This document shows positions 47,843 through 64,000 of a DNA stretch of 64,000 nucleotides, piece by piece. The stretch spans positions 1 through 64,000 of the IMG/VR virus record IMGVR_UViG_3300047994_000617; one strand, written 5' to 3'. The notes beneath the pieces were generated by a model that was not told the DNA's origin, did no database searches, and was given only the letters and a program-made list of their open reading frames with translations. The first letter of the stretch is position 1. The number at the start of each line of letters is the position of its first letter. The translations under genes and the position numbers were made by a program. The DNA is from a virus.

Positions 47843-49612
47843 ATGACCCAGCACCCGGAGGGCGAGCATGCACCCTACGATCCCTCTGGGGGGGCTGGCG
47901 TACAGACAGGCTATCGACCCTCGCCGCCGCATCCGCCGATCAAGTCACATCCGCTGTTTCCGCTCCCGCTCGACGAGCAGGGGGCGCCCGTCGGCTTCGA
48001 GACGGTCGAGATCTGCTACGTCTGCTTCCTCCGCAAGGGGCAGCCCAATATCTACGCACCGCAGAACTTCGAGGCTGACGACCCGCGCGTACAGGATTGG
48101 GCCTGGGTCGCCGCGACGTGGGGCGGCGGCCAGTACCAGGCCATCGCCAAGGACGCGCAGCGGAGGGTGATCCGGCACTCCGGTGAGTGGATCCTCTTCG
48201 ATGGACCGTCGAAGCCGATGGTGATGCCGCCCGACGGCCCGCCGATGGCGACTGTCGCAGCGCATCAGGCCCCGCCAGCGCCCGCTGCCACTGCCGCGCA
48301 GGTGCCTCCGCCCGCCGCCAGCCTCTCCCCGGAGGTGGCTGCACTCGTCGGCGTGGTCAAGGCGCTCGCCGAGGAGGTCCAGCACATGAAGGCCGCTCCG
48401 CCGGCGCCGCCTCCCCCGACTCCAGAGCAGACGATCCTGCTGAAGGTCGTCGAGAAGCTGGACCGGATGGACGAGAGGTCGCGCGAGCGCCCGCCGGCGC
48501 CAGCGGATTCGCTGGTGGCCGTGATGCCGATGTTCCTTCAGCAGATGAAAGACGCCAGCGACAACAACCGGCTCATCATGCAGGCGATGATGGACCGGAG
48601 GAACGAGACTCCGGTGGCGAGCGTGGTTCCACCGTCGCCGGTGGACCAGATGGCCACTCTCATCAAGATGCTCGAGCCGTGGATCAAGCCCCCGCCGCAG
48701 GCCCCCGCGCCGGCCCCGACTGCACCGGCAGCACCGGCCCCAGATCCGCTCGCTTCGACGTTCGCGGTCATGGACAAGCTCAAGGAGCACGGGATGATGC
48801 CCGGTGCCACCGGAGCAGGGAGCAACGACTTGAAGTCGGTGATCGATGGTGGCGCGGCGGTCGTGACGAGGTTCATCGACGCGAAGGCGAAGACGGACGC
48901 GGCTGCCCTCGAGCTGAAGAGGGAAGAGCTCCGGGCGAGCAGGACGGTCCTCCCGCCGCCGGCCCAGGCCGCACCTCCGCCCCAGGCCGCGCCGCCGGCC
49001 CAGGCAGCGCCGCCGGCCCAGGCCGCGCCTCCGCCCCAGGCCGCGCCGCTGGCGGTCCAGGCCGCGCCTCCGCCCCAGGCCGCGCCGCCGGTGGTCCAGG
49101 CCGCGTCTCCGCCCCAGGCCGCGCCGCCGGTGGTCCAGGCCGCGTCTCCGCCCCAGGCCGCGCCGCAGGCGGTCCAGGCCGCGTCTCCGCCCCAGGCCGC
49201 GCCGCCGGCGGTCCAGGCCGCGCCGTCGCGCGACGAGGCACCTGTGGTGGCCCCTTCACCGCCTCCGCCACCGGGCGCGCGGTCTCCCGCTCCGCCGTCG
49301 CCCGTCGCCGAAGCCGCTTCGATCCTCGAAGAGCTGCCCGCCGACACAACGAGCCTTCTCAGGGAGGCTGCGTCGTCGATCACGGTCGAGGAGCAGATGG
49401 GCGCCGCGCAGGCGTTTGCTGGGCTGAAGAGCCTTTCTCAGTCCGAGCGCGTACCGGTCTTGGAGAGCATGTTCCCCAACATGGACACCGGGATGGCCAC
49501 CGGCGTCTCCCGCATGCTCGACGACCTCCCTGTGGACATGCTCCTGCAGAGCCTCCACGGCATGAAGATGAAGATCCTCCTCAACGGGCATAACCCGCCC
49601 CCGGTGGCCTGA
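47843..49612 (+). CDS. Pro/Met-rich protein with QAAPP repeats (first gene of the late-type module)
   Basis: Coding-like codon use from ATG 47843. Confidence 0.75.
   Translation: MTQHPEGEHAPYDPSGGAGVQTGYRPSPPHPPIKSHPLFPLPLDEQGAPVGFETVEICYVCFLRKGQPNIYAPQNFEADDPRVQDWAWVAATWGGGQYQAIAKDAQRRVIRHSGEWILFDGPSKPMVMPPDGPPMATVAAHQAPPAPAATAAQVPPPAASLSPEVAALVGVVKALAEEVQHMKAAPPAPPPPTPEQTILLKVVEKLDRMDERSRERPPAPADSLVAVMPMFLQQMKDASDNNRLIMQAMMDRRNETPVASVVPPSPVDQMATLIKMLEPWIKPPPQAPAPAPTAPAAPAPDPLASTFAVMDKLKEHGMMPGATGAGSNDLKSVIDGGAAVVTRFIDAKAKTDAAALELKREELRASRTVLPPPAQAAPPPQAAPPAQAAPPAQAAPPPQAAPLAVQAAPPPQAAPPVVQAASPPQAAPPVVQAASPPQAAPQAVQAASPPQAAPPAVQAAPSRDEAPVVAPSPPPPPGARSPAPPSPVAEAASILEELPADTTSLLREAASSITVEEQMGAAQAFAGLKSLSQSERVPVLESMFPNMDTGMATGVSRMLDDLPVDMLLQSLHGMKMKILLNGHNPPPVA
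48952..49225 (+). repeat. Tandem coding repeat, QAA(P/S)PP-type units
   Basis: CAGGCCGCG core repeated in 18- and 21-nt units. Confidence 0.9.
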
Positions 49613-49615
49613 GAC

Positions 49616-50644
49616 ATGCGCTACGCCGACCTGGGCCACGGACTCGAGCGCGCTCCCCGTGGTCCCTTCCTGTCCTTCCCGCCCGTGGACGCTCCGGTCC
49701 CCGACATCCGCCCGATCGGCGGGTTCGGACCGGTGCAACTGCACCCCTGGCGCGGCCCCTTCCCTCCCGTGCCCCTGCACGTCGCGCGCTGGCGCTGGAC
49801 CGGCTACCCCGATCTCTTCGACGCGCTCGACGCGAACGACGACGAGGCTGTCGACGAGGACGAGCTCGCCCGAGGCATCGGCCGGGGGCTCCATCTCCTG
49901 CGCGGCGAGGCGGCGGGGCCGATCGACGAAGAGGACTGGCAGGGAGACCCCGAGGCATTCCGTCTGGTCGACGCCGACGGCGACGGCCGCGTGAGCCACC
50001 GCGAGCTGGCGCAGGCCCTCGGGCCTCACGCCATCCGCCTCGCGCACGGGCATCCGGCGCACGGCCCGATGCTGCCTGCGGGATCGGAGCAGGCGTTCAC
50101 CGCCCACGCCCGCTGGGTCGTGTTCAAGAACCGCGAGGACAAGGCGCAGTACATGCGCCGCGCGGCGATCCACGACGCACAGGATCCCCAGGTCAAGTCG
50201 TGGGCGGTGGAGTTCCTCAAGCTGCCCGAGGACAAGCGCGCGACCGCGATCCTCCGCTTCGTGCAGGAGTGCGTCCGCTACGAGAGGGACCCGGCCACCT
50301 TCGATCCCGATGGCACCCGCCACGGCATCGAGCTCCTCGACAGCGCGCCCACGGGGCTCTGCCGCGGCTACGGGGACTGCGATCTCAAGGCGAGGCTGTT
50401 CGTGGCGCTCTGCCTCGCCTCGGGGATCCCCGCGCAGATCGACCCGGTGTTTCGGGGCGAGACGGGGTTTCCCCATGTCCGCGCGCGGGTGCTGCGCATC
50501 GGGGGAGAGACGTCGGACCCCAGGAACTGGGACGTCGCCGACCCCACGATCGTCAACTCCGACATCGGCAAGCTCCCGGCCAAGCCGCTCACCGCCTGGC
50601 CGGAGCACGCGGGAGAGGCACGGCGGGACACCGGGCCCGAGTGA
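49616..50644 (+). CDS. EF-hand pair plus transglutaminase-like cysteine enzyme
   Basis: DANDDEAVDEDE and DADGDGRVSHRE loops; GDCDLKA, PHV, ADPT triad. Confidence 0.88.
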   Translation: MRYADLGHGLERAPRGPFLSFPPVDAPVPDIRPIGGFGPVQLHPWRGPFPPVPLHVARWRWTGYPDLFDALDANDDEAVDEDELARGIGRGLHLLRGEAAGPIDEEDWQGDPEAFRLVDADGDGRVSHRELAQALGPHAIRLAHGHPAHGPMLPAGSEQAFTAHARWVVFKNREDKAQYMRRAAIHDAQDPQVKSWAVEFLKLPEDKRATAILRFVQECVRYERDPATFDPDGTRHGIELLDSAPTGLCRGYGDCDLKARLFVALCLASGIPAQIDPVFRGETGFPHVRARVLRIGGETSDPRNWDVADPTIVNSDIGKLPAKPLTAWPEHAGEARRDTGPE

Positions 50645-50706: not shown

Positions 50707-50763
50707 TCGGCGTGACCCGATTCCGCTTATGCGTTGGTGCCTGTCCTTGGGCGGAGGAATACT
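50707..50763 (+). promoter_or_regulatory. 24-bp motif copy 2 plus putative promoter
   Basis: TCGGCGTGACCCGATTCCGCTTAT, TTGGTG-18-AATACT, 6 nt before GTG 50770. Confidence 0.7.
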
Positions 50764-50769
50764 CACGTC

Positions 50770-51723
50770 GTGGACTTCTCCTTCAGCCGGGGCTCGGGGG
50801 TTCCCACACCGCCGCCGGCGCTCGGTTCTGACACGAACCCGGCGACGCTGACCGGCGCCGCGGCGGCGGCCTACGTCACCAACGACAACTGCGTCACCTT
50901 CCAGCTCGTCGAGGCCGGACCGCAACCGCTGCACCTCGCCGTCGCGGCCGCCTTCGTGGGGACCGGCACGCCGGGGCTGGTGACGCTTAGCCTGTACGTC
51001 TGGGACCCGACCACGGGGACCTGGTTTGCCCTCCCGACCCCCGCGACGCTCGACGTTGGCCAGGAGGTTACGGTCGACGTCCCGGTGGTGATGAGCACGA
51101 CCCTGGCCTGGACGCTGGCGATCGTCGCGTCGGTGGCCTCCCCGGGGGCCGGGATCTACACGTTCGAGGCGGGGCTCAGCGAGAGCGCCGCCGCCGGGAC
51201 CGGCGGCGGCGGGCCGACGACCGTCGTCGCGAACCAGGGCCTGCCAACGGCGGACACGACCAGCGCCGCGTGGCCCGAAATCGCGGCCAACTCGACGTAC
51301 GGTGCATGCTGGGGGGGCACGGCGCCGTTCGGCGCGCCGACCGCTCCGCCGCTCGCCCCTAACTTCGCGCCGGGCGGCTCGGCGGTGGAAGCCGGCGCGG
51401 TGCGGGTGGTCGCCGGCGGCGTCGTGCGCTGCCTCACGGGCGGGCACGTCGCCGCGAACCCGCCGCCCAATGGCGCGCAGGGCGTGACGAGCACGGACGG
51501 CGCCGGCAACGAATGGCTCGGGCTCGGCCCGCTCAAGCAGGGCATCGTCCTGCGAAACCTCGACGCGACCAACGTGCTCATGTGGGACTGGTTCCCCGAC
51601 CAGGCCGCGGGGTTCCCCATCGGCCCCGGCGCCGCGATGGAGATCCCGGTCTCGGACCCCTCGCTGATCTACGTCTGGGGTGCGACGGCCGCCGTCGGGT
51701 GGGCCGTCGCGGGGGCGTCGTGA
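50770..51723 (+). CDS. Beta-rich putative virion spike/vertex protein
   Basis: Thr/Gly/Ala/Val-rich, few charged residues, two apparent beta domains. Confidence 0.6.
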   Translation: MDFSFSRGSGVPTPPPALGSDTNPATLTGAAAAAYVTNDNCVTFQLVEAGPQPLHLAVAAAFVGTGTPGLVTLSLYVWDPTTGTWFALPTPATLDVGQEVTVDVPVVMSTTLAWTLAIVASVASPGAGIYTFEAGLSESAAAGTGGGGPTTVVANQGLPTADTTSAAWPEIAANSTYGACWGGTAPFGAPTAPPLAPNFAPGGSAVEAGAVRVVAGGVVRCLTGGHVAANPPPNGAQGVTSTDGAGNEWLGLGPLKQGIVLRNLDATNVLMWDWFPDQAAGFPIGPGAAMEIPVSDPSLIYVWGATAAVGWAVAGAS

Positions 51724-52242: not shown

Positions 52243-52278
52243 GTCGCGACCCAATAAGTCGATTTATTGGGTCGCGAC
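52243..52278. repeat. 36-bp near-perfect palindrome
   Basis: GTCGCGACCCAATAA-GTCGAT-TTATTGGGTCGCGAC. Confidence 0.95.
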
Positions 52279-52284
52279 CCCGTA

Positions 52285-52353
52285 ATAAGCCAAATCGGGT
52301 CACGCCAAACACCCTATCAGGGGTTGTCTCGTACGGTGTGCTCAGCGCACGCT
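52285..52353. promoter_or_regulatory. 24-bp motif copy 3 (inverted) plus putative plus-strand promoter
   Basis: Reverse complement TTGGCGTGACCCGATTTGGCTTAT (21/24 versus copy 2); TTGTCT-18-CACGCT 6 nt before ATG 52360. Confidence 0.65.
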
Positions 52354-52359
52354 GACCAC

Positions 52360-55300
52360 ATGGAGACTGAGATGCCGGCGCTGCTGGTGGATGGCGACAC
52401 TCGGGCCGCCGACACGCGTCCACTCGACTTGTCGGGCGGCGAGACCGGGGCGGACATCCTGCCCGTCGGCGGCAAGCCCGCGCGCGCGCCGGAGCCCCTC
52501 CACCTGGACAACCTCGCTGGGCAGCCGGCCCCCCTCCAGCTTTCGCCGGAGCCCGCTCCGAGCGCGCCGAAGCCCGCGCCGCGCGCGCCGTCGCCGCCTC
52601 TCCAGCTCAGCGGCGAGCCCGCTCCCAGCCCGCCGCGGTCTCCGGGGCCCCGTCCCCTCCACCTCGGCGCGTCGCCGGCTTCTCCCGTCAACCCGGTCAC
52701 CCCCAGCGCGCCGTCGGCGCGACCGAGGGGGCCGGGCGAGCCGCGGTCGCTGGTCCCCGGCCTCGGCGGGATCCACGCGGGTCACATGGGCGCGGCCACC
52801 GGCCTCGTCCACGGCGCGGTCTCCCAGGTCGGCCGAACGCACCCCCACAACGTCCACATGGGCCAGCTCGCCCACGGCGCGCACGCCGATCCGGTGCGGT
52901 ACGGCGGCGACTTCCTGATCGCGAGCCACGGACCGAAGCGCTTCCACGAGCTCCACGGGGAAGGGCGGCTCCCGTCGCAGGCGTGGGAGCGCCACCGCGA
53001 TATCGCGCGCCATGCGCGCCGCGTCCACGAGGAGCTGGGCGGCGAGCTCGCGCGCCGCCACGGACGCCGGCCCCTCGGGGAGCGCACCCTGATCGGGATC
53101 GCCGCCATGAACGGGGCGCACGACGACATGGCGCGTTACCTCGACGCCCAGCGGGTCCACCCGCACCACCCGGCGCACGAGAGCTGGCACGTCCTGATGC
53201 GCGGCTTTCACCCGCGCGAGATCGCTCGCGTGGGCTCGGAGATCGTGCCCGGGGGGGCCATCGAGCCGGCGGTCGACGCCTACCGCGCGATCTGGGTGGA
53301 GCGCGCTTCAAAGGCACGCGCGGCGCGCCGCGCGTTGCTCGCGCGCCTCCGCGCCCTCTGGGCCTCAGGCGATCCCTCGCTCGTGCCGGCCTTCGAGGGC
53401 GTCGTCCGGGGCATGAGCCCGGAGCAGACGGCGCGGCTCCGTACGACGATCGAGCAGGACGGGGACATCGCGCGCGTGCTCGAGGAGATCGAGGCCGCCA
53501 ATGCCGAGGCGCGCATGGCCTCACGCGAGGCCGCCATGCGGCGCTGGCTCGCCGAGTACCACGCCAACCGCGACCCGGAGGCCCAGACCCCCCTGGACGA
53601 GCTGGCGATGACGCCCCCCTCAAGCGCGCTCATCGGCGCGGCCGAGGGCGACGAGGACGACGACGAGGACGAGGGGGACACGGGCGGTCGCGGCGGAGGC
53701 GGCGGTCACGGCGGAGGCAGCGGACGCGGCGGAGGCCGCCGTCCGAGCGCATGGGGAGGTGCGTGGGGTGGCGGGGGCACACCTGGCTGGTTCTTCCTGC
53801 CCGAGGACCCCGACGAGGCTCTCGACGACCCCGATCCCGAGGCGGGCGCTCCGATGGGCGCCCCGGCCGTGGCCCCGCTGCGGGCGCCGTCTCCCGGCGC
53901 GCACACCGCCGACGGCGTGGTCCCCCTCCACGAGCTCGTGCAGGGCTTCGGTCGCGCCGGCCGCGAGCAGCTCCGCCAAGCCTGGGACCGCGGCAACCCC
54001 TACGACGCCTACCGCGCGATCCTCGATCAGCGGGGCGAGGCGACGCGCGCCGCGCGCGAGGCCGCGTTCGTGGCGCGTCTGGAGCGCCTCGGCTGCATGG
54101 CCGACGGGCTCTGCGAGATCCCCCGCGAACGGCTCACCGCATTCAGCGACCTCACCGAGATGTTCAGCCCGGAGCAGTGGGCGCGGTTCGCGGCCGCGCT
54201 CACCCAGGGCGAGGACAAGCCGCTCGACCTCTTCCGCCAGATCGAGGCGGAGAACCTCGACGCCGCGAAGGCCACCCGGCCGCTCGCCTTCATGCGCTAC
54301 TTCGGATCCTGGGGGCAGCACGCCGCCCGCTGGAACCCGCTGGAGTGGGCCATGCTGGCCCCCCGGATCGGGGTCGACGCGGCGGACGCGGCGGACGCCG
54401 CTGGGATCTTCGACGACCTGAGCGGCGCCCTGGGCGGCGCGCTCAGCGGAGCGGGCGGTGGCGGCGGCGGCAACCCGCTGTCCGGGCTGTCCGGGCTCCT
54501 GGGCGGCGGTGGCGGGGGCGGCGGGGGCGGCGGGGGTGGTCCGGACTTCGGGCAGATCGCCGGCCTCGTCACCAAGGTCGGCGGCGCGATCGCTGGTGCA
54601 GCAGGGGGGCACCCGGGTGCGGGTCTCCCGCCCGACCTGGCCGGCTTCGCCGCCAAGGCCGTCGGAGCACTCACGGGGCGGGCGGCAGCGCCTCCCGTGG
54701 GGCCTCCCATCGGCGCGCCCGCGGCCCAACCGATCCAGGCCCCGACCCGGCCGGTCGTGCATCCAGCGCCCCCGCCGCCGCCCACGCACGAAGGACCGCC
54801 GCGGCACTTCTTCAAGGTGATCGAGGCGTGGGGCCCGCGCGGCAAGACGCAGCTCGCCCACGAGTGGGTCAAGGGGCTCGTCGGGATCGGCCTCGGCGAG
54901 ATGGCGCAGGCGCAGGGGCCCGCCCTCCTGGATCGGATCGCGGTGCGGGAGCTCCCCGCCGCCAACACCGATCCGGCCCAGGGGTGGTGGTCGCAGCTCA
55001 TCGCGCACCAGGGGATCGACGGGAACGAGGCGGAGGTCGTGCTCGCCGCGATCAACGCCGGCCCGGACGCGATCCCGCAGGCCGTCGCGGCCTACCGCCG
55101 CGTGCTCGAGGGGCCCGTACGCCACCAGGCCCTGGAGCGCGAACACCTCTTCGCCGAGGTGCTCGCCGCGGCGCAGAAGGCCGCCGGCAAGCCCGGCTTC
55201 GACCCGAAGCGGCTCCCCGGCCTCGGCAACCCGTTCGAGGCGTTCTCCCACCGCGCCGGCCGCTGGGGCGCCGTCCACCAGGCGCTCCTCAACGGTTCGG

Positions 55301-58300
55301 GCGCCGCGGAGGCATTCCGCGGGAGCGAGGACCAGCGCGTCGCCGACTACCTCCGCCTGGCCGGTGAGCGGATGGAGCACTTCGCCCGCGAGCTCTGGGC
55401 ACGTCGCTCCAAGGCGGCCCCCGCGCCGTCGCCGGCGGCGCCGTCGGGCCCCGAGGCGGGCGACCCGTTCGAGGCGGGCGCCCTGTGGGGCAATCGCTTC
55501 GGGCGCGAGGGCATCCGCCGCGAGGGCATCGTTCGCGAGGGCTTCGGGCGCGAGGGCATCCGCCGCGAGGGCGTCCTTCGCGAGGGCTTCGGGCGGGAAG
55601 GCATCCGCCGCGAGGGCATCCTCCGGGAGGGCTTCGGGCGCGAGGGCATCCGCCGCGAGGGCGCGCTCCGCGGTCCCCCGATGGGTCCCGGCTGGGGCGG
55701 CCGGCAGTGGTCCGCCGGTCACCCGGGGGCGCACAGCTTCGTCGGGTACGACGGCAAGACCCGCATGGGGGAGCACTTCGTCGATTCGCACGGCTATCAG
55801 GCGATGCGGACGGCGGACGGCCACGTCTGGCTGTGGCAGACGGACGGGTCGGGGTGGAAGGACAATGGCCCGGGAGGGAAAAGCCCCGGGTACAGCGAGA
55901 GAGGCCTCCAGGGCTTCTTCGCGCACGTTCACGCGGCCGAGACCCACGGGCCGGAGGAGGAGGCGGGCTTCGCTGTCCGTCGTCCGCGTCCCTTCTTCCA
56001 CCTCGGATTCAACCGGCCGTGGAGCCGGCTCGAGATGGCCCGCATGCTGGAGGCGGTCCCACAACTCCGGGCGCATCCCGATGGTGTGCTCCAGGAGATC
56101 GCGGGGCGCCGGGCGCGTCCGCGCGACCTGCGAGGCGTGGACGCGACACGCCTCGAATACCACATCCTGCCTCGCGGCGAGTCCTTCAACGACATCGCCG
56201 CGAAGCTGGTCGGGGACCGCCGCCGCGGGGCCGAGATCGTCTTCGCCAACCCCGGGCTCGGCGAGGGCCAACGGACCCTCCGGATCCCTCCGGGATGGCT
56301 CGGCCGGATCCCCCTCCGGATCCCCGCGCACCTCGTTCACGAAGCCGCCGGCCTCGATGCCGGGGAAGCCGGCGAAACCGGCGAGGCCGGGTCGGTCCGA
56401 CGTTCTCGGCGCCGCAACGGCGGTGGGAGAGGGCGGGGAGGGCGGGGCGGCCACGGGGGCGGAGGAGGCGGCTACGGCGGCTTCCAGGGCCCCCAGGGGC
56501 CCCCGGGACCCCCGGGCGACGCCGAGCCGGACGACGACGACGCCAGCGGCTTCGTCGACGACCTCCGGGCCCTCGTGCTCGGGGGCGGCGCCCCCGCGCC
56601 CATGATCTCCCCCCAGCCGGAGCCGCCCATCGACGAGACCCCGGTCGATCTCCTGGAGACGCCCCGCGGCCTCGAGACGCCGGCCCCCGGCCACGGCAGC
56701 GCGGTGGACGGTCCGCGGAGCCCGCTGACCCGCACCACCTACAAGGTCGAGCGGTCCGGCATGGGGATGTTCGCCATCGCCCAGAAGTTCGGAGCCGTGC
56801 CGCCGAAACGCGCCCACTGGTTCGGCGAGCTCCGCGACGCGAACCCGCACAAGCACATCGCCGTCGACAGCGCTGGCAAGCAGATCGGCTGGCAGAGCCT
56901 CGGCAAGGGCGAGGAGATCAACATCCCCGACGCCTGGATCGCGAAGGGCGAGGCCTCCGGCGTCGACGAGGAGGCCGGACAGCCCCTCGCGCTGACCGAC
57001 GAGAACCTCGTGGAGGCGGGGCCCCCCATCTTCGCCAAGCTCGGCGACATCGCCGGCGCGACCAAGATCCTGAGGGCCATCCAGGGGCGCCTCGGGAACG
57101 AGGGGCTCGACACGTTTCAGCGAAGGATCTTCGACGCCATCACGGGGTACTCGGACAAGGACCCGGCGATCGTCGAGGTCTATGCGCTCCTCGGCCGTGA
57201 CCGCGGCGTGGCGGCGGCGCTGGACGGACTCCGGAGCGGGCGGCGCGACAGCAAGGACATCTCCCGCTTCGGCCGGAGGGTGCTCGCTGCGCTCACGGGC
57301 GAGCTCGAAGTGGCCCCTCGCCCCCGCAACTACGACACGCAGGGCCTCGACGAGGCGGGCGACACGGGCGCCATCGACGAGGACGCCCTCCGCCAGAACA
57401 TCACCCAGCGCACGTACGTGGTCCAGCGCGGCGACGGGATGCAGGCGATCGCGAAAAAGCTGGGCGCCTTCCCCGCGCGGCCCAAGTGGTTCGCGGAGCT
57501 CCGGGACGCCAACCCCCACAAGGAGATGGCCACCCAGGGCGGCAAGCAGATCGGCTGGAAGCGCCTCTACGCCGGCAAGGTCATCAACATCCCCGACGTC
57601 TGGCCGGAGTCGCCCGCGCTGGTCGCGCCGCCGAGCGGACCGACCGTCGCTCCCCCGCACCCCGGGATCGAGCACGCGCCCGGAGGCCCGGGAGGGGCAA
57701 CCCCCTCCGTGACGGCCCCGCCGGGGACGATCCCCGCGGCCGCCACGATCGACAAGGGGACCATCCATCGGGTGCAGGCGTACCTCGTGCTGTTCCGCAC
57801 GGGTCACCCGGACGCGATCGATCCGAAAGACTTCGGCGTCGGGATGCCGGTCTCCCAGGACGTGATCGGCGTTCCCTCGGCGCGCACGACGAGGGCCATC
57901 GGGAGCTTCCAGCGCTGGAGCAACCGGACCGCGGGCACGCACCTCCGCGAGGACGGTCAGCTCGACCCGGCCACGATCGAGGCGCTCGATCACTACGCGC
58001 TCACGGCCCTCGACCTGCCCCCGCGGCCGGCCCTGGCGCCGGTCCTCGGCGGGGAGATGCCCCACCCGGCCGACCCCTACGGGCCGCTGCTCGACGGCGC
58101 GGCCCACGACGTGACCCAGGTCGCCGTGGACATCGCCCGCAAGGCCGGCGAGCTCCCGCGCCCGCAGACGCCGCCGCCCGGCGCCGCCCAAATCCCCGAG
58201 GACCCGTACCGAGACCTCCCCAAGCTGCGCGGCGAGGTGATCCGCGTGCTCGACGGCGGCCCCCCGGCCCAGCCGCCCGGTCCCGCTCCGCAGCCGCCGG

Positions 58301-58647
58301 CGCCGGCGCCCCCGCCCGCGGGCCCGCCGCCGCGTCCGGGTCCCCCGCCGCGCCGGCACCGTCCGCCGCGTGACGCGGGGCCCGACATGCGCGCCTCCTA
58401 CGACGCGCCGATCCCGTCGCTCGCGCCCGCCCCTCGGGCGCCGGACGGGCTCCCGCCCGCCGCGCCCCCGGACGCGTCGCGCCCGCCGCCGAAGAAGAAG
58501 GCGGAGGGCGACGTCGGCCCGATGATCGGCGGGACGCTGCTGGGCGGCCTGCTCGGCGGCCCGATCGGAGCGGTCATGGGCTTCATCGGCGGCGCGATCG
58601 CGTCGGAGGACCCGAAGCCGACCCCGCCGCCCGCGAGAAGGGCCTGA
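52360..58647 (+). CDS. ~2095-aa modular protein: 3 helical repeats, 3 LysM-like domains, PG-binding domain, C-terminal glycine-zipper TM
   Basis: YVVQRGDGMQAIAKK..ANP..INIP; AIGSFQR..EDGQLDPATIEAL; GGLLGGPIGAVMG. Confidence 0.85.
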   Translation: METEMPALLVDGDTRAADTRPLDLSGGETGADILPVGGKPARAPEPLHLDNLAGQPAPLQLSPEPAPSAPKPAPRAPSPPLQLSGEPAPSPPRSPGPRPLHLGASPASPVNPVTPSAPSARPRGPGEPRSLVPGLGGIHAGHMGAATGLVHGAVSQVGRTHPHNVHMGQLAHGAHADPVRYGGDFLIASHGPKRFHELHGEGRLPSQAWERHRDIARHARRVHEELGGELARRHGRRPLGERTLIGIAAMNGAHDDMARYLDAQRVHPHHPAHESWHVLMRGFHPREIARVGSEIVPGGAIEPAVDAYRAIWVERASKARAARRALLARLRALWASGDPSLVPAFEGVVRGMSPEQTARLRTTIEQDGDIARVLEEIEAANAEARMASREAAMRRWLAEYHANRDPEAQTPLDELAMTPPSSALIGAAEGDEDDDEDEGDTGGRGGGGGHGGGSGRGGGRRPSAWGGAWGGGGTPGWFFLPEDPDEALDDPDPEAGAPMGAPAVAPLRAPSPGAHTADGVVPLHELVQGFGRAGREQLRQAWDRGNPYDAYRAILDQRGEATRAAREAAFVARLERLGCMADGLCEIPRERLTAFSDLTEMFSPEQWARFAAALTQGEDKPLDLFRQIEAENLDAAKATRPLAFMRYFGSWGQHAARWNPLEWAMLAPRIGVDAADAADAAGIFDDLSGALGGALSGAGGGGGGNPLSGLSGLLGGGGGGGGGGGGGPDFGQIAGLVTKVGGAIAGAAGGHPGAGLPPDLAGFAAKAVGALTGRAAAPPVGPPIGAPAAQPIQAPTRPVVHPAPPPPPTHEGPPRHFFKVIEAWGPRGKTQLAHEWVKGLVGIGLGEMAQAQGPALLDRIAVRELPAANTDPAQGWWSQLIAHQGIDGNEAEVVLAAINAGPDAIPQAVAAYRRVLEGPVRHQALEREHLFAEVLAAAQKAAGKPGFDPKRLPGLGNPFEAFSHRAGRWGAVHQALLNGSGAAEAFRGSEDQRVADYLRLAGERMEHFARELWARRSKAAPAPSPAAPSGPEAGDPFEAGALWGNRFGREGIRREGIVREGFGREGIRREGVLREGFGREGIRREGILREGFGREGIRREGALRGPPMGPGWGGRQWSAGHPGAHSFVGYDGKTRMGEHFVDSHGYQAMRTADGHVWLWQTDGSGWKDNGPGGKSPGYSERGLQGFFAHVHAAETHGPEEEAGFAVRRPRPFFHLGFNRPWSRLEMARMLEAVPQLRAHPDGVLQEIAGRRARPRDLRGVDATRLEYHILPRGESFNDIAAKLVGDRRRGAEIVFANPGLGEGQRTLRIPPGWLGRIPLRIPAHLVHEAAGLDAGEAGETGEAGSVRRSRRRNGGGRGRGGRGGHGGGGGGYGGFQGPQGPPGPPGDAEPDDDDASGFVDDLRALVLGGGAPAPMISPQPEPPIDETPVDLLETPRGLETPAPGHGSAVDGPRSPLTRTTYKVERSGMGMFAIAQKFGAVPPKRAHWFGELRDANPHKHIAVDSAGKQIGWQSLGKGEEINIPDAWIAKGEASGVDEEAGQPLALTDENLVEAGPPIFAKLGDIAGATKILRAIQGRLGNEGLDTFQRRIFDAITGYSDKDPAIVEVYALLGRDRGVAAALDGLRSGRRDSKDISRFGRRVLAALTGELEVAPRPRNYDTQGLDEAGDTGAIDEDALRQNITQRTYVVQRGDGMQAIAKKLGAFPARPKWFAELRDANPHKEMATQGGKQIGWKRLYAGKVINIPDVWPESPALVAPPSGPTVAPPHPGIEHAPGGPGGATPSVTAPPGTIPAAATIDKGTIHRVQAYLVLFRTGHPDAIDPKDFGVGMPVSQDVIGVPSARTTRAIGSFQRWSNRTAGTHLREDGQLDPATIEALDHYALTALDLPPRPALAPVLGGEMPHPADPYGPLLDGAAHDVTQVAVDIARKAGELPRPQTPPPGAAQIPEDPYRDLPKLRGEVIRVLDGGPPAQPPGPAPQPPAPAPPPAGPPPRPGPPPRRHRPPRDAGPDMRASYDAPIPSLAPAPRAPDGLPPAAPPDASRPPPKKKAEGDVGPMIGGTLLGGLLGGPIGAVMGFIGGAIASEDPKPTPPPARRA
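55498..55662 (+). repeat. 11 copies of a 15-bp unit encoding xxREG, with a 45-bp higher-order period
   Basis: FGREG-IRREG-(I/V)(V/L)REG array. Confidence 0.95.
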
Positions 58648-58649: not shown

Positions 58650-59558
58650 GTGGCAACGGTGCCCCAGGCGCTCGCCTCGCCGACGTCGATCACGTGGAAA
58701 CACGTCGATCCGGATCTCGGCGCCCAGGTCAAGGCGGCGCTCGCGCTGCGCTCGAGGCCGGGCGCTGACCCACGCGAGGCGTTCCGGAAGATGAGCAGCT
58801 CAGAGCGCGTGCGCTTCCTGCGCGCCCTCTCGATCGGGACGCTGCTCGCCATCGAGGACAGCCGCGTGGGCGGGATCCCTCCCCTCGGGGAGATGGACAC
58901 CGCGCTCACGCTGGGGCGCAAGCCCGTCCGAGCGGACCAGTTCGCGACGCCCGGTCACCTCTACGCCGCGTCGATGCTGGCGCGGGCGCCGATGATGATC
59001 GGCGATCCGGGCAAGCACATGGTCTACAGCGCGGAGACGCGCGAGGGTGACCCCGCTGCCCTCGACACCAAGGGCCCCTCGGCGGAGACCGGAGGAGGCA
59101 CGGACACGGGCCTCGCCCCGATCTTGGTCGGGGTGGCCATCGTGGCGACCACGGGCGTGCTCGGCATCGCCATCTGCTACTGCGGCCAGCTCGCCGCCGA
59201 GGTCGTCGATCGCAAGCTGGCGGACGACGCGCTGACCGCGCGCATGGTGATGACCCAGGCATCGGCCTCGGATCTGGTCATGGCGCACACGGCCCGCGAG
59301 CAGGCCGCGGGCGGCGCCCCGATCCCGTACGACGCGGGGGAGCTGAAGGTGCTCGACATGCTCGGCGGCGCGTACGTCGCGCTGGCGAAGAGAGACAGGA
59401 GCCCGATCCCCAACCCCTTCGCCGGTGCGGTGAAGAGCGCGGGGCGGGCCGTAGAGAACGCTGCGAGCGGCGTGGGCTTCGGCCTGGTCGTCGCGCTGGC
59501 AGCCGCGGGGGCCCTCTACGCCGCATCGCGCGCGGAGGCCGCTCCAGCAGAGCACTGA
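58650..59558 (+). CDS. Putative virion membrane protein
   Basis: Two hydrophobic segments; ETG/DTG motifs just before the first. Confidence 0.7.
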   Translation: MATVPQALASPTSITWKHVDPDLGAQVKAALALRSRPGADPREAFRKMSSSERVRFLRALSIGTLLAIEDSRVGGIPPLGEMDTALTLGRKPVRADQFATPGHLYAASMLARAPMMIGDPGKHMVYSAETREGDPAALDTKGPSAETGGGTDTGLAPILVGVAIVATTGVLGIAICYCGQLAAEVVDRKLADDALTARMVMTQASASDLVMAHTAREQAAGGAPIPYDAGELKVLDMLGGAYVALAKRDRSPIPNPFAGAVKSAGRAVENAASGVGFGLVVALAAAGALYAASRAEAAPAEH

Positions 59559-59618: not shown

Positions 59619-60209
59619 ATGACGACTCAAGCAGCGGGAGCGGGTGTGATCACGGTGGACGAGAAGGAGTACGCGTCCGGCGTCCGAGCGAAGGCGAAGC
59701 TCGAGGAGCTGAAGCTCGCCGGGAACACCGAAGAGGGTATGGGCCTCATCAAGGGCGGGAAGTACGGCGCCGGCGTGCTCAAGATCGCGGGCGGCTGGGG
59801 CCCCCTGATCACGGCGGCGCTCGCGGGCGGAGCGATCTTCGCCCTGTCCGAGATGAAGTCCGTCAAGGGCATCCAGTTCTTCAAGGACCACTGGTACGCG
59901 AGGGGCATCGCCGGCCTCTTGCTCGCCGCGTTCTTGTGGAAGAAGGGCTATCAAGTGTGGGCCGCGGCCCTCGCCTCCACCGCGCTCGGCCTGATGTACG
60001 CCGACCACGAGAACCGCCAGGGCGCGCCCCCGAAGGAGGCCAGCGGCCCGGAGGACCCGGACGCCGGGTACTGGATCGGCGGCGCGTGGTACCCGCGGCG
60101 CCACTGGGACGACCCGCGGCTCGTCGAGCGCTACCGCCTGGAGGAGCTGCTCCCCGCGCGGCGCGCGGCCGAGGCGCGGGCGGAGCGCCTCTACGAGGTC
60201 GGGGTCTAG
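59619..60209 (+). CDS. Putative membrane protein with 3 hydrophobic segments
   Basis: AAGGAG RBS; TM-like helices. Confidence 0.75.
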   Translation: MTTQAAGAGVITVDEKEYASGVRAKAKLEELKLAGNTEEGMGLIKGGKYGAGVLKIAGGWGPLITAALAGGAIFALSEMKSVKGIQFFKDHWYARGIAGLLLAAFLWKKGYQVWAAALASTALGLMYADHENRQGAPPKEASGPEDPDAGYWIGGAWYPRRHWDDPRLVERYRLEELLPARRAAEARAERLYEVGV

Positions 60210-60231
60210 GCGCGGCGGCGAGGCCGTGAAC

Positions 60232-60268
60232 GCGCAGCCGCGGACCCGAGGGGTCCGCGGGGCTGCGC
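60232..60268 (+). other. Stable hairpin 5' of the capsid candidate
   Basis: CCGCGGACCC-GAG-GGGTCCGCGG within GCGCAG..CTGCGC. Confidence 0.6.
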
Positions 60269-60304
60269 TCCACAAGGATGAGACGAGGACGGGAGAGCAA
60301 GGAC

Positions 60305-61627
60305 ATGGACGCACAGCAGGTTCTCAGTGAAGTGAAGGGTAAGGTCTCCGCCGCCGCGGCGCGGGAGGCCGCCGGGATGGAGGCTGGCGAAGCGGCGGGT
60401 GACACCGCCGGCGTGGACACGGCCCTGGCCGAGGCCGGCGCGGCCGCGGAGGCGCCCGCCGTGATCGTGACGGCGCCGTCGATCGAAGCCGGCATCGAGC
60501 ACCTCAAGCGCGAGGGCGCCCTCAACGTGGAGACCCTGGTGGGCCTCACGCACCACGCGGCGCGGGTCCAGGGCAAACACAGCCATCGGCATGGCTTCCG
60601 CCAGGGCCTGAACCACCACCGCAGGGTCCGGGGAGCGTTCATGCGGCCCCACGACTTCCCGGTGCCGTACGGCCGGAGCGAGGACATGAAGGGGTTCCGG
60701 TACGACGTCATCCAGCGCTTCGCCGAGGGGAACGGCGGCAAGGTGGTGTCGCAGGCGGGCGAATACTACGGGACCTTCCAGACCGCCTTCACCGTTTCGT
60801 CCTTCGGCGGATCGAGCCCGACGAGCGGTCTCTTCTCGATCGTGGTCCCGCCCACGCCGGCGAGCAGCACCTACTACGTCAACCCCCCCGCCGACACCTG
60901 CTTCGACTTCAGCATCGGGGAGTCGGACCCGAACTGGTTCGGGGGGCCACACACGATGACCCTCGCGGACACGAACCTGCAATACCCCGGCCAGGGCCTC
61001 TACCAGAAGGAGGTCTTCATCATCGAGGCGTGGGAGGCCCGCTTCAAGGGGCTCCGGATTCAGTTCGACACCACGAAGATCCCGGGCTTCTCGGCCCTCC
61101 CGCTGCCCATCCAGGCCATGCTGCAGGGGCAGGCATGCATCTGGGATCGCGAGAACCTGGTGCTGCCCTCGGGCATCTTCAACAAGCTCACCGACGTCTG
61201 CGAGCTCGCGCAGGCGCTGGCGGAGGTCGCCAGCATCCAGCTCGAGTGGGTCAACCTCGGGCCCGGGTCGAACAACGTCGTCGCCACGAAGCCTCTCGGG
61301 CGCATGTGCGGCAACCCCTCGACCTACCGCCGGAGCGTCGTGGAAACGAGCGGCGGCGGTCTCGCGCTCGACCTCCCCCGCGGCTACATCTGGTGCCAGG
61401 ACGAGACGTTCCAGCCCAACGAGGACAGCGGCGGCAATGGCTTGCTCTACGGGCAGCTCCTCCTGAACGACAACGTGGACTGGCCGTTCCCGGCGCTCGC
61501 GTCGGTCTACGGGTCGGGCCCCATCGTGCCGACGGGGATCGCCCTGGAGTGGCAGTTCAAGGTCTACGGCACCGCGCTCCTGCCCTCGAAGGCGGACCGG
61601 CGCCTGAACGTCCAGCGCCGAAGCTAG
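60305..61627 (+). CDS. Candidate major capsid protein (jelly-roll type) with an N-terminal leader
   Basis: Beta-rich C-terminal ~270 aa with TLADTNL..GQG..FII; strong codon bias; flanking hairpins. Confidence 0.5.
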   Translation: MDAQQVLSEVKGKVSAAAAREAAGMEAGEAAGDTAGVDTALAEAGAAAEAPAVIVTAPSIEAGIEHLKREGALNVETLVGLTHHAARVQGKHSHRHGFRQGLNHHRRVRGAFMRPHDFPVPYGRSEDMKGFRYDVIQRFAEGNGGKVVSQAGEYYGTFQTAFTVSSFGGSSPTSGLFSIVVPPTPASSTYYVNPPADTCFDFSIGESDPNWFGGPHTMTLADTNLQYPGQGLYQKEVFIIEAWEARFKGLRIQFDTTKIPGFSALPLPIQAMLQGQACIWDRENLVLPSGIFNKLTDVCELAQALAEVASIQLEWVNLGPGSNNVVATKPLGRMCGNPSTYRRSVVETSGGGLALDLPRGYIWCQDETFQPNEDSGGNGLLYGQLLLNDNVDWPFPALASVYGSGPIVPTGIALEWQFKVYGTALLPSKADRRLNVQRRS

Positions 61628-61643
61628 AGCGCCGGAGGAGCAA

Positions 61644-61669
61644 GCCCCGCGCCGGCGACGGCGCGGGGC
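61644..61669 (+). terminator. 11-bp stem with a GNRA loop after the capsid candidate (attenuator or stabiliser)
   Basis: GCCCCGCGCCG-GCGA-CGGCGCGGGGC; no adjacent U-tract. Confidence 0.5.
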
Positions 61670-61703
61670 GCAGCGGCTCAACCTTTCGAGGAGTCGACCA
61701 AAA

Positions 61704-62288
61704 GTGCCCGTCCCGCTCCTCCCCGCCAACGTCAACGCCCAGAAGATCGATCCTCGGGAGCGCGATCCGAGGAAGAACGTGCTGGAGATCGCTCTCCCCT
61801 CGCCTGGCATCCGGCGGGCGTACATCGTCCTCCAGACCGGCACGATCACGGACGAGGAGTGGAATCGGATCTGGTGGACGCTTCAGGCCGACGTGATGCT
61901 TGCGGAGACCTTCGACGGCCTCGACCACATCTCCCTCCTGCCAGGCCTGCTGGAGATCGCGCCGCTCACGACCACCGTCGCTCACGTGGCCACGGCATAC
62001 TGGGTGGAGGGTTTGCCCGCGACGAGTATCCGCGTGCGCGTGTCGAGCTACGGAGAGCAGCCCTCGGGCTATGCGCAGGTCTACGGCTGGGGCGACACGA
62101 CCCCGCACGACAAGTCGGGGCTCTGGCCGGCGCCCTATGGGCACGTCCGTCAGCCGCGACGCATCGTCGCGCCACTGCCCGATCCCGAGCAGACCCTCGG
62201 CGAGACGTCGCTCGTCGATTTCCTCATGTTCACCGACCGGATCGGCGCGCCGCCGCGCGAACCGCAGGTGAAGCTGCACAAACGTTAA
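61704..62288 (+). CDS. Hypothetical structural-module protein
   Basis: GAGGAG RBS plus GTG. Confidence 0.7.
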   Translation: MPVPLLPANVNAQKIDPRERDPRKNVLEIALPSPGIRRAYIVLQTGTITDEEWNRIWWTLQADVMLAETFDGLDHISLLPGLLEIAPLTTTVAHVATAYWVEGLPATSIRVRVSSYGEQPSGYAQVYGWGDTTPHDKSGLWPAPYGHVRQPRRIVAPLPDPEQTLGETSLVDFLMFTDRIGAPPREPQVKLHKR

Positions 62289-62313: not shown

Positions 62314-62757
62314 ATGTCCGCTGTTGCCCCCAGCCTCATCCTGCCCGTACAAGTCATCAGCCCCGTCCCGTGGACGGGGAACATGCAAGCCGTCGTCACC
62401 GTCAACTGCCTCGACGGCGATACCGGCCAGACGGCCTCCCGCGCGAGCGCCTGGATCCAAGTGCCACCGGGCATGATCCCCCAGCTCTCGCTCGGCCTCA
62501 GCGCGGAGACCGGTACCTTCGGGTGCTACCTCGAGACCTGCAACCAGGTCGTCGCCGGCGCCGCCGTCGACACCCCCCGCCCCATCGGCTACTTCAAGCA
62601 GACCCCCGGGGCCGCGCTGCCGACCTCCACGCCGATGTCGGGAGGCCAGCCCACCGACAACTGGGTCCGCGTCCAGAGTCAGGTCGGCAACGGCGGCAGC
62701 GTCGCATGGCTGGTGAGCGGTCGCTTCATCGCCGCGTCGTACGCGCAGCAGCTCTGA
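62314..62757 (+). CDS. Small beta-rich protein, possible single jelly-roll minor capsid protein
   Basis: AAGGA RBS; beta-strand pattern. Confidence 0.6.
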   Translation: MSAVAPSLILPVQVISPVPWTGNMQAVVTVNCLDGDTGQTASRASAWIQVPPGMIPQLSLGLSAETGTFGCYLETCNQVVAGAAVDTPRPIGYFKQTPGAALPTSTPMSGGQPTDNWVRVQSQVGNGGSVAWLVSGRFIAASYAQQL

Positions 62758-62769
62758 TCTCGAGGTCGA

Positions 62770-64000
62770 GTGGCCCTCTTGCTGATCCAGGCGGGGACTG
62801 GCGGCGCGCTCTGCGTCTACGCCAGCCCCTTGCCTGACGTCAGCCCGGGCCACCCGGACACCACCACCGCGCCCGGCATGCCCGGGCCGACCAAGGCCGC
62901 CCTCGGCCCCGTCCCCTGCATCGTCGGCGTCAACGCCCGGGGCTCCGAGACCCCGGAAGAGATCCTCGCCTTCGCCACGGCGAAGACGGGCCGGGAGCTC
63001 TGGTGGGGTGCGCTGATCGGCGTCTCCCGGGGCTGCCAGAGGGTCCGCGACCTGTGGATCGCCGGCGCTGGGGCCCTCGCCCTGGTCCTCATCGACGGCA
63101 TGGCTGGCGTGAAGCCGCCCACCGAGATGCAGAAGGGCTTCACCCAAACCATCGTCGCCCTCGCGCGGTCCGGCGCGATCCTTTTGGTCGTCAGCCACAC
63201 GTACATCGACCAGGGCAAGGCGATCACCTCGACCGCCGAGATGGCGCGGACCGCCACGGGGTGGTCGCTGCCCCCTCCGCCCGTCGGGGAGACCGTGCGC
63301 CGGGTCCAGATGCCCGCCGGCGAGACGCCAGCCCCTCCCGGCTGGCGCGGGGGCCTGGTGGTCTTCTCGACGGGCTCGGGCCCGGCCGATGGCGGCGCCC
63401 ACCGCGACCAGATGGGCAAGCTGCTCCCGCTCATCCTCGAGGATCGGGTGCGGCCCCTGGTGAGCCTGGCGGAGCGGCCCGAGGTGGTCGCCTCCGCGGT
63501 GCCGGCGAGCTCGCCGGAGCCGGAGGCCGAGACGGGGCCGTGGAGTCGCCTGGGCGCCTTGCCGGCGCATGGATCTACGGCTGCACCTACCGCTGCACCA
63601 ACCGCTGCACCAACCGCTGCACCAGGGCGCACGACCGCAGACGGGGCGCGGCGCTACCTCTTGATCGGCGACTCGTTCGCCCAGGGCTTCGGGCCGCCCC
63701 TCGCCGAGCTGGCCGGGAAGCGGCGCCTCGCCTTCCGGGGGGTCGGCATCAAGTCGACCACGATGGGCGACTGGCTCACGGGCGGGCGCGGGGCGGACCT
63801 CCGCGGCGCCGTCGAGGCCGCCGACCCAACGGTCACGATCGTGTCGCTCGGTGCGAACGACATGGCCGGAGGCGATGCAGCGGGCCGCCGGGCCGGGGAC
63901 GTTATCGACACCCTCCGCCGCAACGGCTCGGCCGCAGTGCTCTGGGTGGCGCCGCCGAAGATGCCCACCGAGAGCGCCCCCTTCCGCACCGCCCTCGCCG
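62770..64000 (+). CDS. Alpha/beta-hydrolase-like plus SGNH/GDSL hydrolase fusion (partial, not in the ORF track)
   Basis: Open frame from GTG 62770: LIGVSRG (GxSxG), then LIGDS, SLGAND, LWVAPP. Confidence 0.8.
   Translation, partial: MALLLIQAGTGGALCVYASPLPDVSPGHPDTTTAPGMPGPTKAALGPVPCIVGVNARGSETPEEILAFATAKTGRELWWGALIGVSRGCQRVRDLWIAGAGALALVLIDGMAGVKPPTEMQKGFTQTIVALARSGAILLVVSHTYIDQGKAITSTAEMARTATGWSLPPPPVGETVRRVQMPAGETPAPPGWRGGLVVFSTGSGPADGGAHRDQMGKLLPLILEDRVRPLVSLAERPEVVASAVPASSPEPEAETGPWSRLGALPAHGSTAAPTAAPTAAPTAAPGRTTADGARRYLLIGDSFAQGFGPPLAELAGKRRLAFRGVGIKSTTMGDWLTGGRGADLRGAVEAADPTVTIVSLGANDMAGGDAAGRRAGDVIDTLRRNGSAAVLWVAPPKMPTESAPFRTALA
63577..63624 (+). repeat. Four 12-bp units encoding a TAAP linker
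   Basis: ACCGCTGCACC(A/T)-type units. Confidence 0.9.

Follow-up and report, generated by a model that had tools for sequence, protein, structure and literature searches.

What kind of particle is built by a large provirus in which no head-tail genes can be recognized? The question is raised by a 64,000-nt stretch of DNA (hereafter, the window) that forms the first half of IMG/VR virus record IMGVR_UViG_3300047994_000617. Toward its right end, a run of plus-strand genes had been taken, in a reading made from the letters alone (the sequence-only reading), for the structural module of a large tailless virus. The observations behind that reading proved largely right, being confirmed in part, and its interpretation is partly supported. 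We consider it probable, if well short of certain, that the segment from 45 to 64 kb, continuing to ~73 kb, serves particle morphogenesis in a non-tailed temperate virus integrated in a soil myxobacterium of the Polyangia type. The virus would have a jelly-roll-based shell and a genome of roughly 100 kb or more; this is our best reading of the locus.

The record comprises 128,625 bp; IMG/VR lists it as a provirus, and CheckV puts its completeness at 81%. Because raw lists of open reading frames (ORFs) are useless at its GC content of 72%, genes were called by codon bias, based on the GC content of third codon positions (GC3). The 68 genes called in the window all lie on the plus strand, with stops and starts that mostly overlap, and spacing is tight throughout 47.8-64 kb. 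Beyond the window, a minus-strand block (74-91.5 kb) is followed by a second plus-strand block (92-125 kb).

Fold and predicted self-association of the capsid candidate

The protein on which the reading turns is a major capsid protein (MCP) candidate of 440 residues (Table 1). A model of the whole protein (predicted local distance difference test (pLDDT) score, 69) shows a helical leader of ~110 residues and a beta-rich body. A wide structural search with this model was uninformative, as it was swamped by the helical leader, and the beta-domain was refolded alone with a deeper alignment of 62 sequences, i.e., the window domain and 61 matches, with 15 fragments left out. The resulting AlphaFold2 model (pLDDT 89.5; predicted template modeling score 0.87) is one beta-sandwich of ~11 strands, and the jelly-roll fold expected from the sequence-only reading is present in it.

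In an unbiased alignment against 48,161 PDB chains, the top matches were all jelly rolls, with no HK97-fold protein among them. The best match is the MCP of SPV1 (Z 6.5; root-mean-square deviation (RMSD) 4.5; 159 of 178 residues aligned, or 89% of the SPV1 chain), and the other capsid matches include HCIV-1 (Z 5.9), the P23-77 proteins VP17 (4.9) and VP16 (4.8), and HHIV-2 (4.7). Rescoring of the Foldseek top 1000 gave a similar picture (SPV1, Z 6.7; SH1, 5.9; HCIV-1, 5.5). The overall RMSD of the SPV1 match is 4.3-4.5 at a sequence identity of 4-6%, and its lead over the next unrelated match is less than 1 Z unit; we take its top rank in these model comparisons as a likeness and not as proven kinship. 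The double-jelly-roll proteins of PBCV-1 (Z 4.6) and STIV (5.0-5.3) align by just one of their two domains, the alignments spanning 120-160 residues. A Foldseek search of BFVD returned 34 matches with E values of 1e-3 or below, mostly CRESS/circovirus-type capsid proteins, all of which have TM-scores of 0.24 or less, and we set it aside as a jelly-roll hint only. At the level of the predicted model, then, we regard the jelly-roll fold as established and capsid kinship as not established.

When modeled in three copies, the domain is predicted to self-associate head-to-tail, with an ipSAE score of 0.54 versus 0.02 for the best control, a partner pLDDT of at least 72, and agreement between runs in at least 75% of contacts. 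Of 30 solved homomers, 20 attain the threshold used for this prediction, as does 1 of 23 single chains, a calibration that is only rough here. Such an association would fit a lattice former, and from the models we infer that the jelly-roll protein is the MCP.

Search for tailed-phage hallmarks

The reported absence of terminase, portal, HK97 capsid and tail genes was borne out by every search made. None was found by Pfam hmmscan (50 of the 68 window ORFs), by PHROGs (16 of those ORFs), or, at the level of families, in hmmscans of ~90 proteins. We also carried out six-frame searches of three records, namely the whole 128.6-kb record and two metagenome-assembled genomes (MAGs), 11.2 and 9.4 Mb in size, in which related elements occur. 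The three TerL families (PF03237, PF03354 and PF04466) were each found in none of the three records, and the same is true of PF05065 (HK97 capsid), PF04860 (portal) and PF10145 (tape measure), with controls that fired in 2-8 of 14 reference genomes. The scope of these searches is one Pfam family each for capsid and portal, and the tape measure for the tail; fold prediction covered the capsid candidate.

Inspection of the right flank likewise revealed no head-tail module over the 64 kb that follow the window, nor was one found in the two related-element MAGs. By these profile searches, a canonical head-tail set is probably not hidden in this record or in the two MAGs; a very divergent TerL is conceivable. 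A weak TerL match among PHROGs, that of the FtsK protein discussed below (8.6e-7), is a P-loop cross-match that lies far below the FtsK matches of the same protein.

Homology with ~24-kb elements from soil

Shorter homologs of the capsid candidate (263-303 aa, corresponding to the body only) occur on 52 metagenome loci (L028-L079). Eight of the 52 contigs span 23.4-24.9 kb and none is longer, a pile-up that could in principle reflect a length limit of the collection. Their gene order is circularly permuted (integrase-F5-F6-F8-F1 on L072 versus F1...integrase-F5 on L065, where F numbers denote gene families of the small elements), and the ~24-kb contigs are probably complete small circular genomes. 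The gene families were derived from the 21 longest of the 52 loci, and the tblastn comparison from 17; the GC3-based caller performed poorly on three loci of 50-55% GC (L060, L063 and L066).

On the 21 loci the conserved order is integrase, F5, F6, F8 (on the opposite strand), F1, F7, F2, F0, F3, F4 and F17. The integrase is of the tyrosine type and matches XerA in the PDB (4e-11). F1 proteins are 600-980 aa long and bear LysM, with an F1 profile that matches LysM proteins of the PDB (E 1.7e-4), and F17, which lies 3' of the jelly-roll gene, is an SGNH esterase, a type of domain that the 1039-aa protein of the large element has as well. Profile comparison links five of the families to the module. 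F6 corresponds to the window's transglutaminase domain (hmmsearch 1.6e-32; hhalign 99.8%), F7 to the 302-aa protein (58659-59558; 6.9e-22; 99.6%), F2 to the 196-aa protein (59646-60209; 1.6e-6; 95.3%), F0, the small jelly-roll protein, to the capsid candidate (hhalign 99.0%), and F1 to residues 1655-1942 of the giant protein (hmmsearch domain E 2.7e-20). At the level of sequence profiles, four module genes and a segment of the giant protein are shown to be homologous to a block of the ~24-kb elements. For the 194-aa and 147-aa proteins, hhalign found no link to F3 or F4, nor, for the 194-aa protein, to F0.

A terminase or an FtsK/HerA packaging ATPase was not found in the examined parts of the ~24-kb elements, in which F8 is the only family with a consistent Walker A motif. 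F8, a P-loop protein of ~260 aa placed like the FtsK of one of the MAG elements (element B), was considered as a packaging ATPase and rejected, since its PDB profile match is of the RadA/Sms type (E 8e-34). From their gene content, the ~24-kb elements look like an undescribed tailless virus family in their own right.

Integration, size and host of the large element

The window's capsid-candidate protein is also recorded on a 684,557-bp contig, and the element is therefore integrated. Both ends of the record fall exactly at stop codons, from which we infer that the record was trimmed at gene boundaries. The temperate lifestyle that had been proposed fits a serine recombinase, ParA and Ant/Rha/P22-AR-like regulators (see below). 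Homologs of the genes from ~8 kb in the window to ~127 kb on the contig recur together in two ~100-kb regions on one MAG contig, beside which there is a third, weaker copy. The synteny of the two regions makes the large size a property of the element family, and the earlier estimate of more than 64 kb is upheld; an element of about 100-128 kb as a whole is the best explanation of these gene arrangements.

The family of the capsid candidate is rare. Its 14 homologs among 5.8 billion proteins (35-45% identity) include none with a name, an exhaustive profile search of 1.84 billion cluster representatives recovered 65, and no relatives were found among PDB sequences. The relatives of the large element are in a Byssovorax MAG (three copies) and a 'delta proteobacterium' MAG, and a myxobacterial host is therefore supported. 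The family was matched in 2 of 401 sampled Myxococcota genomes, one of which is the query's own MAG; this count is a floor, from a stricter first look.

The FtsK/SpoIIIE ATPase

In the window, an FtsK/SpoIIIE-family ATPase, a candidate for a DNA-packaging or DNA-transfer motor, is encoded directly 5' of the module. Its gene in MAG element B lies within the module, on the opposite strand, and in MAG element A there is only a C-terminal fragment-like match, 20 kb away. Plasmids of sphingomonads, rhizobia, Chlorohelix and Hymenobacter encode ~1,750-aa proteins whose C-terminal domain shares 53-63% identity with the motor domain of this ATPase. Identification of the ATPase by homology as a viral packaging enzyme was rejected: on the phage side, tblastn matched only FtsK-like genes of an accessory kind, from Bacillus phages and tailed mycobacteriophages, at ~34% identity or less, and the plasmid genes are closer. 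It is plausible from its sequence and placement that FtsK was recruited as the packaging motor for an enlarged genome.

The ~1,750-aa relatives are found in conserved three-gene clusters beside PAPS-reductase/cysteine-desulfurase/DUF4007 (Dnd/Ssp-like) loci, and possibly constitute a defence-associated FtsK family.

Comparison with known systems

SPV1, which has an archaeal host and a linear genome of ~20 kb, provides the best structural match of the jelly-roll domain. The ~24-kb relatives resemble it in having one detected single-jelly-roll protein, with no FtsK/HerA ATPase in the parts examined; SPV1 is described by Krupovic et al. 2022 (PMC8812541) as having one single-jelly-roll MCP without a packaging ATPase, and as basal to the vertical single-jelly-roll branch. 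The present element differs from the Portogloboviridae in its bacterial host, its size of ~100-128 kb and its FtsK-type ATPase, and its small relatives look circular.

The viruses of the Helvetiavirae (P23-77/IN93; SH1, HCIV-1 and HHIV-2; Simuloviridae) are tailless and have jelly-roll capsid proteins, and there, likewise, an ATPase gene lies near the capsid genes. Matches of this type (SH1, Z 5.9; HCIV-1, 5.5-5.9; P23-77, 4.8-4.9) are equaled or exceeded by cellular jelly rolls. Their capsid proteins are paired single jelly rolls, whereas no such pair was found here by hhalign; their virions have an internal lipid membrane, whereas few candidate transmembrane (TM) proteins were found here by a crude hydropathy scan; and the ATPase here is of the cellular FtsK type. 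Proviruses are known among Helvetiavirae-type viruses (PMC12642351), and genomes of the single-jelly-roll families are given as 16-31 kb (PMC12642351 and PMC12643093). The 10-20 kb range that the sequence-only reading gave for tailless membrane-containing phages omits SSIP-1. With a 44-kb genome and T=49, SSIP-1 is to our knowledge the largest cultured phage of this kind, and we know of the vertical single-jelly-roll lineage only from haloarchaea, Thermus and SSIP-1. SSIP-1 is a cultured tailless membrane-containing bacteriophage with two types of capsid protein and a genome unlike GenBank entries (PMC6356626).

The Tectiviridae and Corticoviridae (PRD1 and PM2) share with the present element the tailless virion concept and, by analogy, virion-associated lytic enzymes and vertex spikes that have a common anchor and variable tips. 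They differ from it in having a double jelly roll, in contrast to the single one here, and the genome here is 5-10 times larger; the A32/P9-type ATPase and the protein-primed polymerase were not seen here. Double-jelly-roll phages are under 20 kb, and prokaryotic jelly-roll viruses in general are small (PMC8812541). Of the Varidnaviria-like affinity proposed in the sequence-only reading, the jelly-roll fold stands; the fold is single and not double, its Z-scores tie with those of cellular jelly rolls, a membrane is not evidenced, and the FtsK is of a cellular type.

Mx alpha is a prophage of M. xanthus of ~80 kb, described in a review (PMC6070905) as multi-copy and as producing tail-less particles of ~35 nm that are too small for its own genome. 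The element resembles it in its myxobacterial host, its large unit (~100 kb here), its 2-3 copies per genome and the failure to find tail genes. Capsid, tail and terminase genes are not mentioned in the Mx alpha literature searched. The jelly-roll family was matched in just two of the 401 sampled Myxococcota genomes.

Proposed roles and alternative explanations

Under our preferred reading, that of a morphogenesis module of a non-tailed virus, the helical leader and the upstream 196-aa protein would act in assembly, and the Ca-binding transglutaminase-fold enzyme would cleave or cross-link virion proteins during maturation. Passage across the envelope may be aided by the SGNH/SpoIID protein of 1039 aa and by the giant LysM-related protein, and three paralogous fibre-like genes at 67.8-72 kb may encode vertex spikes. 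The FtsK-type ATPase, which is not in the small relatives, would have been recruited to pump a much larger genome into the shell.

Several points weigh against this reading. The virus itself is so far a prediction from its genes. In the structural ranking, jelly rolls of cellular proteins stand among those of capsid proteins (PHM, Z 6.1-6.5; dopamine beta-hydroxylase, 6.1; nucleoplasmins, 5.5-5.8), the capsid Z-scores of 5-6.7 fall in the 'common arrangement' range by the calibration of the tool, and no E-value of Foldseek against the PDB went past 1e-3. The jelly rolls of phage cement or decoration proteins (KHP40 and Pam1) and of XepA match as well, at Z 4.4-5.2, and from the models a non-shell role for the jelly-roll protein is possible. 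One jelly-roll protein is evidenced; hhalign comparison with its neighbors revealed no paralogy (probabilities of 0.9% or less), and neither a penton nor a second capsid protein was found. An A32/P9-type packaging ATPase was likewise not found, and the FtsK gene is of a cellular type and differs in position between copies. The family is absent from IMG/VR except for this record and, by tblastn, from 50,697 phage records. The 18 window ORFs outside the Pfam scan are all small, and the left flank of this copy is beyond the data, as the window starts at the record end; the related MAG copies compensate for this flank.

The homology with the ~24-kb elements admits an explanation that we consider unlikely but the strongest of the alternatives, namely that the capsid module of a ~24-kb-type virus was captured by a large mobile island and forms small tailless particles that hold only DNA fragments, much as a gene transfer agent does or as is reported for Mx alpha. 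Shell genes homologous to those of the ~24-kb elements would imply an inherited capsid geometry far too small for 100+ kb, the elements are multi-copy (2-3 in one MAG and three in another), and the particles of Mx alpha, at ~35 nm and tail-less, are described as too small for its ~80 kb (PMC6070905). However, the ~110-residue leader is on the large-element capsid candidate and not on the small-element proteins, several module proteins far exceed their small-element counterparts in size, and an FtsK motor is present, all of which fit a re-scaled particle. The family was also matched in only two of the 401 Myxococcota genomes sampled (a floor), and the query's own MAG accounts for one of these. 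We give still less credence to a highly divergent Caudoviricetes phage that escapes the profiles, in which the jelly-roll protein would be a cement, decoration or receptor-binding protein. Cement jelly rolls of tailed phages do match (KHP40, Z 5.2; Pam1, 5.2), as does XepA (4.4), several module proteins of 300-800 aa are unfolded, and the early genes (DnaB, PolA exonuclease, SF2 helicase and methylases) are of the kind usual in large tailed phages, with a DarB-like giant protein beyond the window; the atlas neighbors of two small module proteins are labeled mostly Uroviricota, which we treat as leads only. On the other hand, TerL is normally the easiest hallmark to detect, and the three TerL families, HK97, portal and tape measure were found in none of the three records with positive controls. 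PHROGs were also silent on the 10 ORFs of 45110-62757, FtsK aside; the only consistent Walker A protein of the small relatives, in the parts examined, is RadA-like; and a genome of ~24 kb that holds an integrase, a replication protein and the module leaves little space for a head-tail set.

An origin outside the viruses is, in our judgment, improbable. It would make the locus an integrative conjugative or contact-transferred element with an FtsK translocase (cf. actinomycete TraB), the supposed structural genes a source of proteins that are secreted, exposed at the surface or active in cell-wall remodelling, and the jelly roll a carbohydrate-binding module. The ATPase is a true FtsK/SpoIIIE protein with its closest relatives on plasmids, domains that act on the envelope (LysM-related, SGNH, SpoIID and transglutaminase-fold) abound in the module, and cellular carbohydrate-active jelly rolls score like capsid proteins; giant polyvalent proteins, too, are reportedly present on conjugative elements, a point attributed to Iyer et al. 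2017. Yet the Pfam scans revealed no relaxase, type IV secretion system or other conjugation families, and a lysis-type GH25 lysozyme and phage-type anti-repressors are present. The small relatives keep the module, and FtsK was not found there; the predicted head-to-tail self-association would fit a lattice former, and the IMG/VR class is that of a provirus.

We return to the reading of the locus as a non-tailed virus module, and offer a more specific version of it as a tentative proposal, which could well be wrong. The element would belong to an undescribed bacterial tailless lineage with one SPV1-like jelly-roll shell protein, ranging from ~24-kb circular temperate viruses of soil bacteria, with no packaging ATPase of their own, to myxobacterial forms of 100+ kb with a leader, inflated virion proteins and FtsK, and this lineage would be a plausible identity of Mx alpha-type particles. 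If so, the large forms would have by far the largest genomes of non-tailed prokaryotic viruses, which would break the size ceiling of such viruses and extend the vertical single-jelly-roll lineage to ordinary soil bacteria. The lineage would also provide a natural series for the scaling of capsid and packaging with genome size, e.g., by FtsK recruitment, and a testable candidate for the builder of tail-less particles in Mx alpha and other large multi-copy prophages of myxobacteria. The family escapes searches with standard viral markers, and for it there is no named homolog, no other IMG/VR record and none among the phage records searched.

Other genes and features of the module

The features of the module, together with two giant proteins from beyond the window, are collected in Table 1. 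Pfam matches in 47.8-64 kb are limited to the EF-hand/transglutaminase-core protein and the GDSL domain of the 62770 gene, and PHROGs gave no match for the 10 ORFs of 45110-62757 other than FtsK.

Table 1. Coordinates of the module features and of two giant proteins beyond the window ("contig" denotes positions on the whole record).
Feature	Position	Strand	Evidence
FtsK/SpoIIIE-family ATPase, 673 aa, N-terminal zinc-ribbon-like segment	45110..47131	+	PF01580 E 9.1e-33; PHROG FtsK/SpoIIIE-like E 1.6e-54
823-aa Pro/Ala-rich protein	47141..49612	+	17.7% Pro, 17.8% Ala; no Pfam/PHROG match
EF-hand pair + transglutaminase-fold (papain-like) cysteine enzyme	49616..50644	+	EF-hand E 1.3e-7, Transglut_core E 9.4e-6 (Pfam)
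329-aa low-charge Thr/Gly/Val/Ala-rich protein, candidate virion protein	50734..51723	+	No family match; kept in both MAG elements
2126-aa giant protein	52267..58647	+	Residues ~1655-1942 homologous to F1; whole protein without Pfam/PHROG match
302-aa conserved membrane-protein candidate	58650..59558	+	Two hydrophobic segments; 5 homologs in MAG copies
196-aa Ala/Gly/Leu/Glu/Lys-rich protein, scaffold-/core-like candidate	59619..60209	+	Just 5' of capsid-candidate gene
GC-rich hairpin 5' of capsid-candidate gene	60205..60310	+	Minimum free energy (MFE) -48.3 kcal/mol, z -2.94, 1/200 shuffles as good
440-aa MCP candidate	60305..61627	+	Helical leader of ~110 residues + single jelly-roll domain
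GC-rich hairpin, 11-bp perfect stem, 3' of capsid-candidate gene	61622..61710	+	MFE -42.9 kcal/mol, z -1.90, 11/200 shuffles as good
194-aa protein	61704..62288	+	Large myxobacterial elements only; 5 homologs in MAG copies
147-aa low-charge protein, possibly small beta-sandwich	62314..62757	+	4 homologs in MAG copies
1039-aa protein	62770..64000, on to contig 65889	+	Hydrophobic segments; Lipase_GDSL_2 E 4.7e-11; SpoIID E 8.8e-11
3353-aa protein, Eco57I/N6-methylase + SNF2/helicase domains	contig 94238-104299		64%-identical homolog in MAG element B
3198-aa protein, complete serpin domain, then weak C39-like peptidase match	contig 105950-115546		Serpin E 1.2e-104

Most of what the sequence-only reading had listed for this region was recovered. 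By composition, the module includes several low-charge Thr/Gly/Val-rich proteins, in keeping with the beta-rich proteins it had described, and its transglutaminase-like enzyme was found with an EF-hand pair in addition. In this enzyme, the Cys, His and acidic residue are kept in 12 of 12 aligned sequences, and it is therefore probably active; we consider it a candidate maturation protease or cross-linker. The membrane proteins of the sequence-only reading came down to a few candidates by the crude hydropathy scan, with two TM segments in the 302-aa protein and three in the 1039-aa protein. As for cell-wall-binding domains, SpoIID is present in the 1039-aa protein at residues 813-896, past the window end, and LysM was found only in the small-element relatives; it was not detected in the window's giant protein by Pfam, and PDB phmmer gave no match for the last 495 residues of that protein. 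From its domains, the 1039-aa SGNH/GDSL and SpoIID protein is a candidate virion-associated envelope- or cell-wall-degrading enzyme.

The hairpins said to flank the capsid candidate are real features of both spacers, GC-rich in each case. As T-run terminators they were rejected, since neither has a T-run and a consensus terminator scan was negative at the capsid-candidate gene. This gene and the upstream 196-aa gene are tied for the highest GC3 of the window (0.93).

Two of the module proteins have neighbors in an atlas of protein clusters, which we treat as leads only. For the 329-aa protein the closest clusters are viral hypothetical proteins (score 0.77), and the 147-aa protein reaches a feature score of 0.92 to viral hypothetical clusters, the nearest named families being XepA and Bbp16 at 0.88. 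Within the gene of the 823-aa protein, positions 48954-49222 consist of near-perfect tandem repeats (87-93% identical) offset by ~36-39 nt; further tandem repeats are present at contig 93317-93538 and 73247-73394.

Early region and genes beyond the window

As judged from its genes, the overall content of the record is that of a large temperate virus. The early region encodes, by Pfam, a DnaB helicase, two C5-methylase fusions, PP2C and dual-specificity phosphatases, PadR, an SF2 helicase, a PolA-type 5'-3' exonuclease and an IstB-like AAA protein. The two fusions (2985-5717, 910 aa; 16409-18394, 661 aa) each consist of an N-terminal C5 cytosine methylase and a long unannotated C-terminal region. 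Two early genes without a family match (157 and 205 aa) contain an internal duplication with 77% identity (36205-36527 and 41980-42302). Another pair of duplicates, 75% identical, is formed by 517-957 and contig 77991-78437, the latter within minus-strand genes with DNA-repair-like PHROG matches. Judging from this pair, the first ~1.4 kb of the window may well contain minus-strand genes and not the start of the long plus-strand ORF called there.

Beyond the window, contig 67831-72042 contains three fibre-like paralogs whose 5' regions of ~300 nt are 76-79% identical, i.e., they have common N-termini. One has a weak C1q-like C-terminus (PHROG 15750), and one is 25% Gly. A shared anchor with variable tips would correspond to the pattern of spike or fibre proteins. 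The minus-strand block includes Ant/Rha/P22-AR-like regulators, a Ser/Thr kinase and a TPR protein.

In the second plus-strand block, the 3353-aa methylase/helicase protein is one that we take to resemble the P1 DarB-type virion-delivered anti-restriction proteins, and the complete serpin of the 3198-aa protein is unusual within a giant phage-borne protein. The block also encodes LigT, Nudix, PAPS-reductase and DUF6884 proteins.

Among sequencing runs, the stretch is present whole in two from moss metagenomes, a possible source, and four more contain 8-10% of the sampled words; no RNA sequencing runs containing it are listed.

The right end of the record holds a GH25 lysozyme, a tRNA, ParA and a serine recombinase. 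The tRNA, identified by ARAGORN at contig c[125561-125648], is an 88-nt tRNA-Gly with anticodon ACC, which closely follows the lysozyme gene downstream and precedes ParA and the serine recombinase. Odd in both length and anticodon, it is possibly a tRNA carried by the phage, or else an attachment site.

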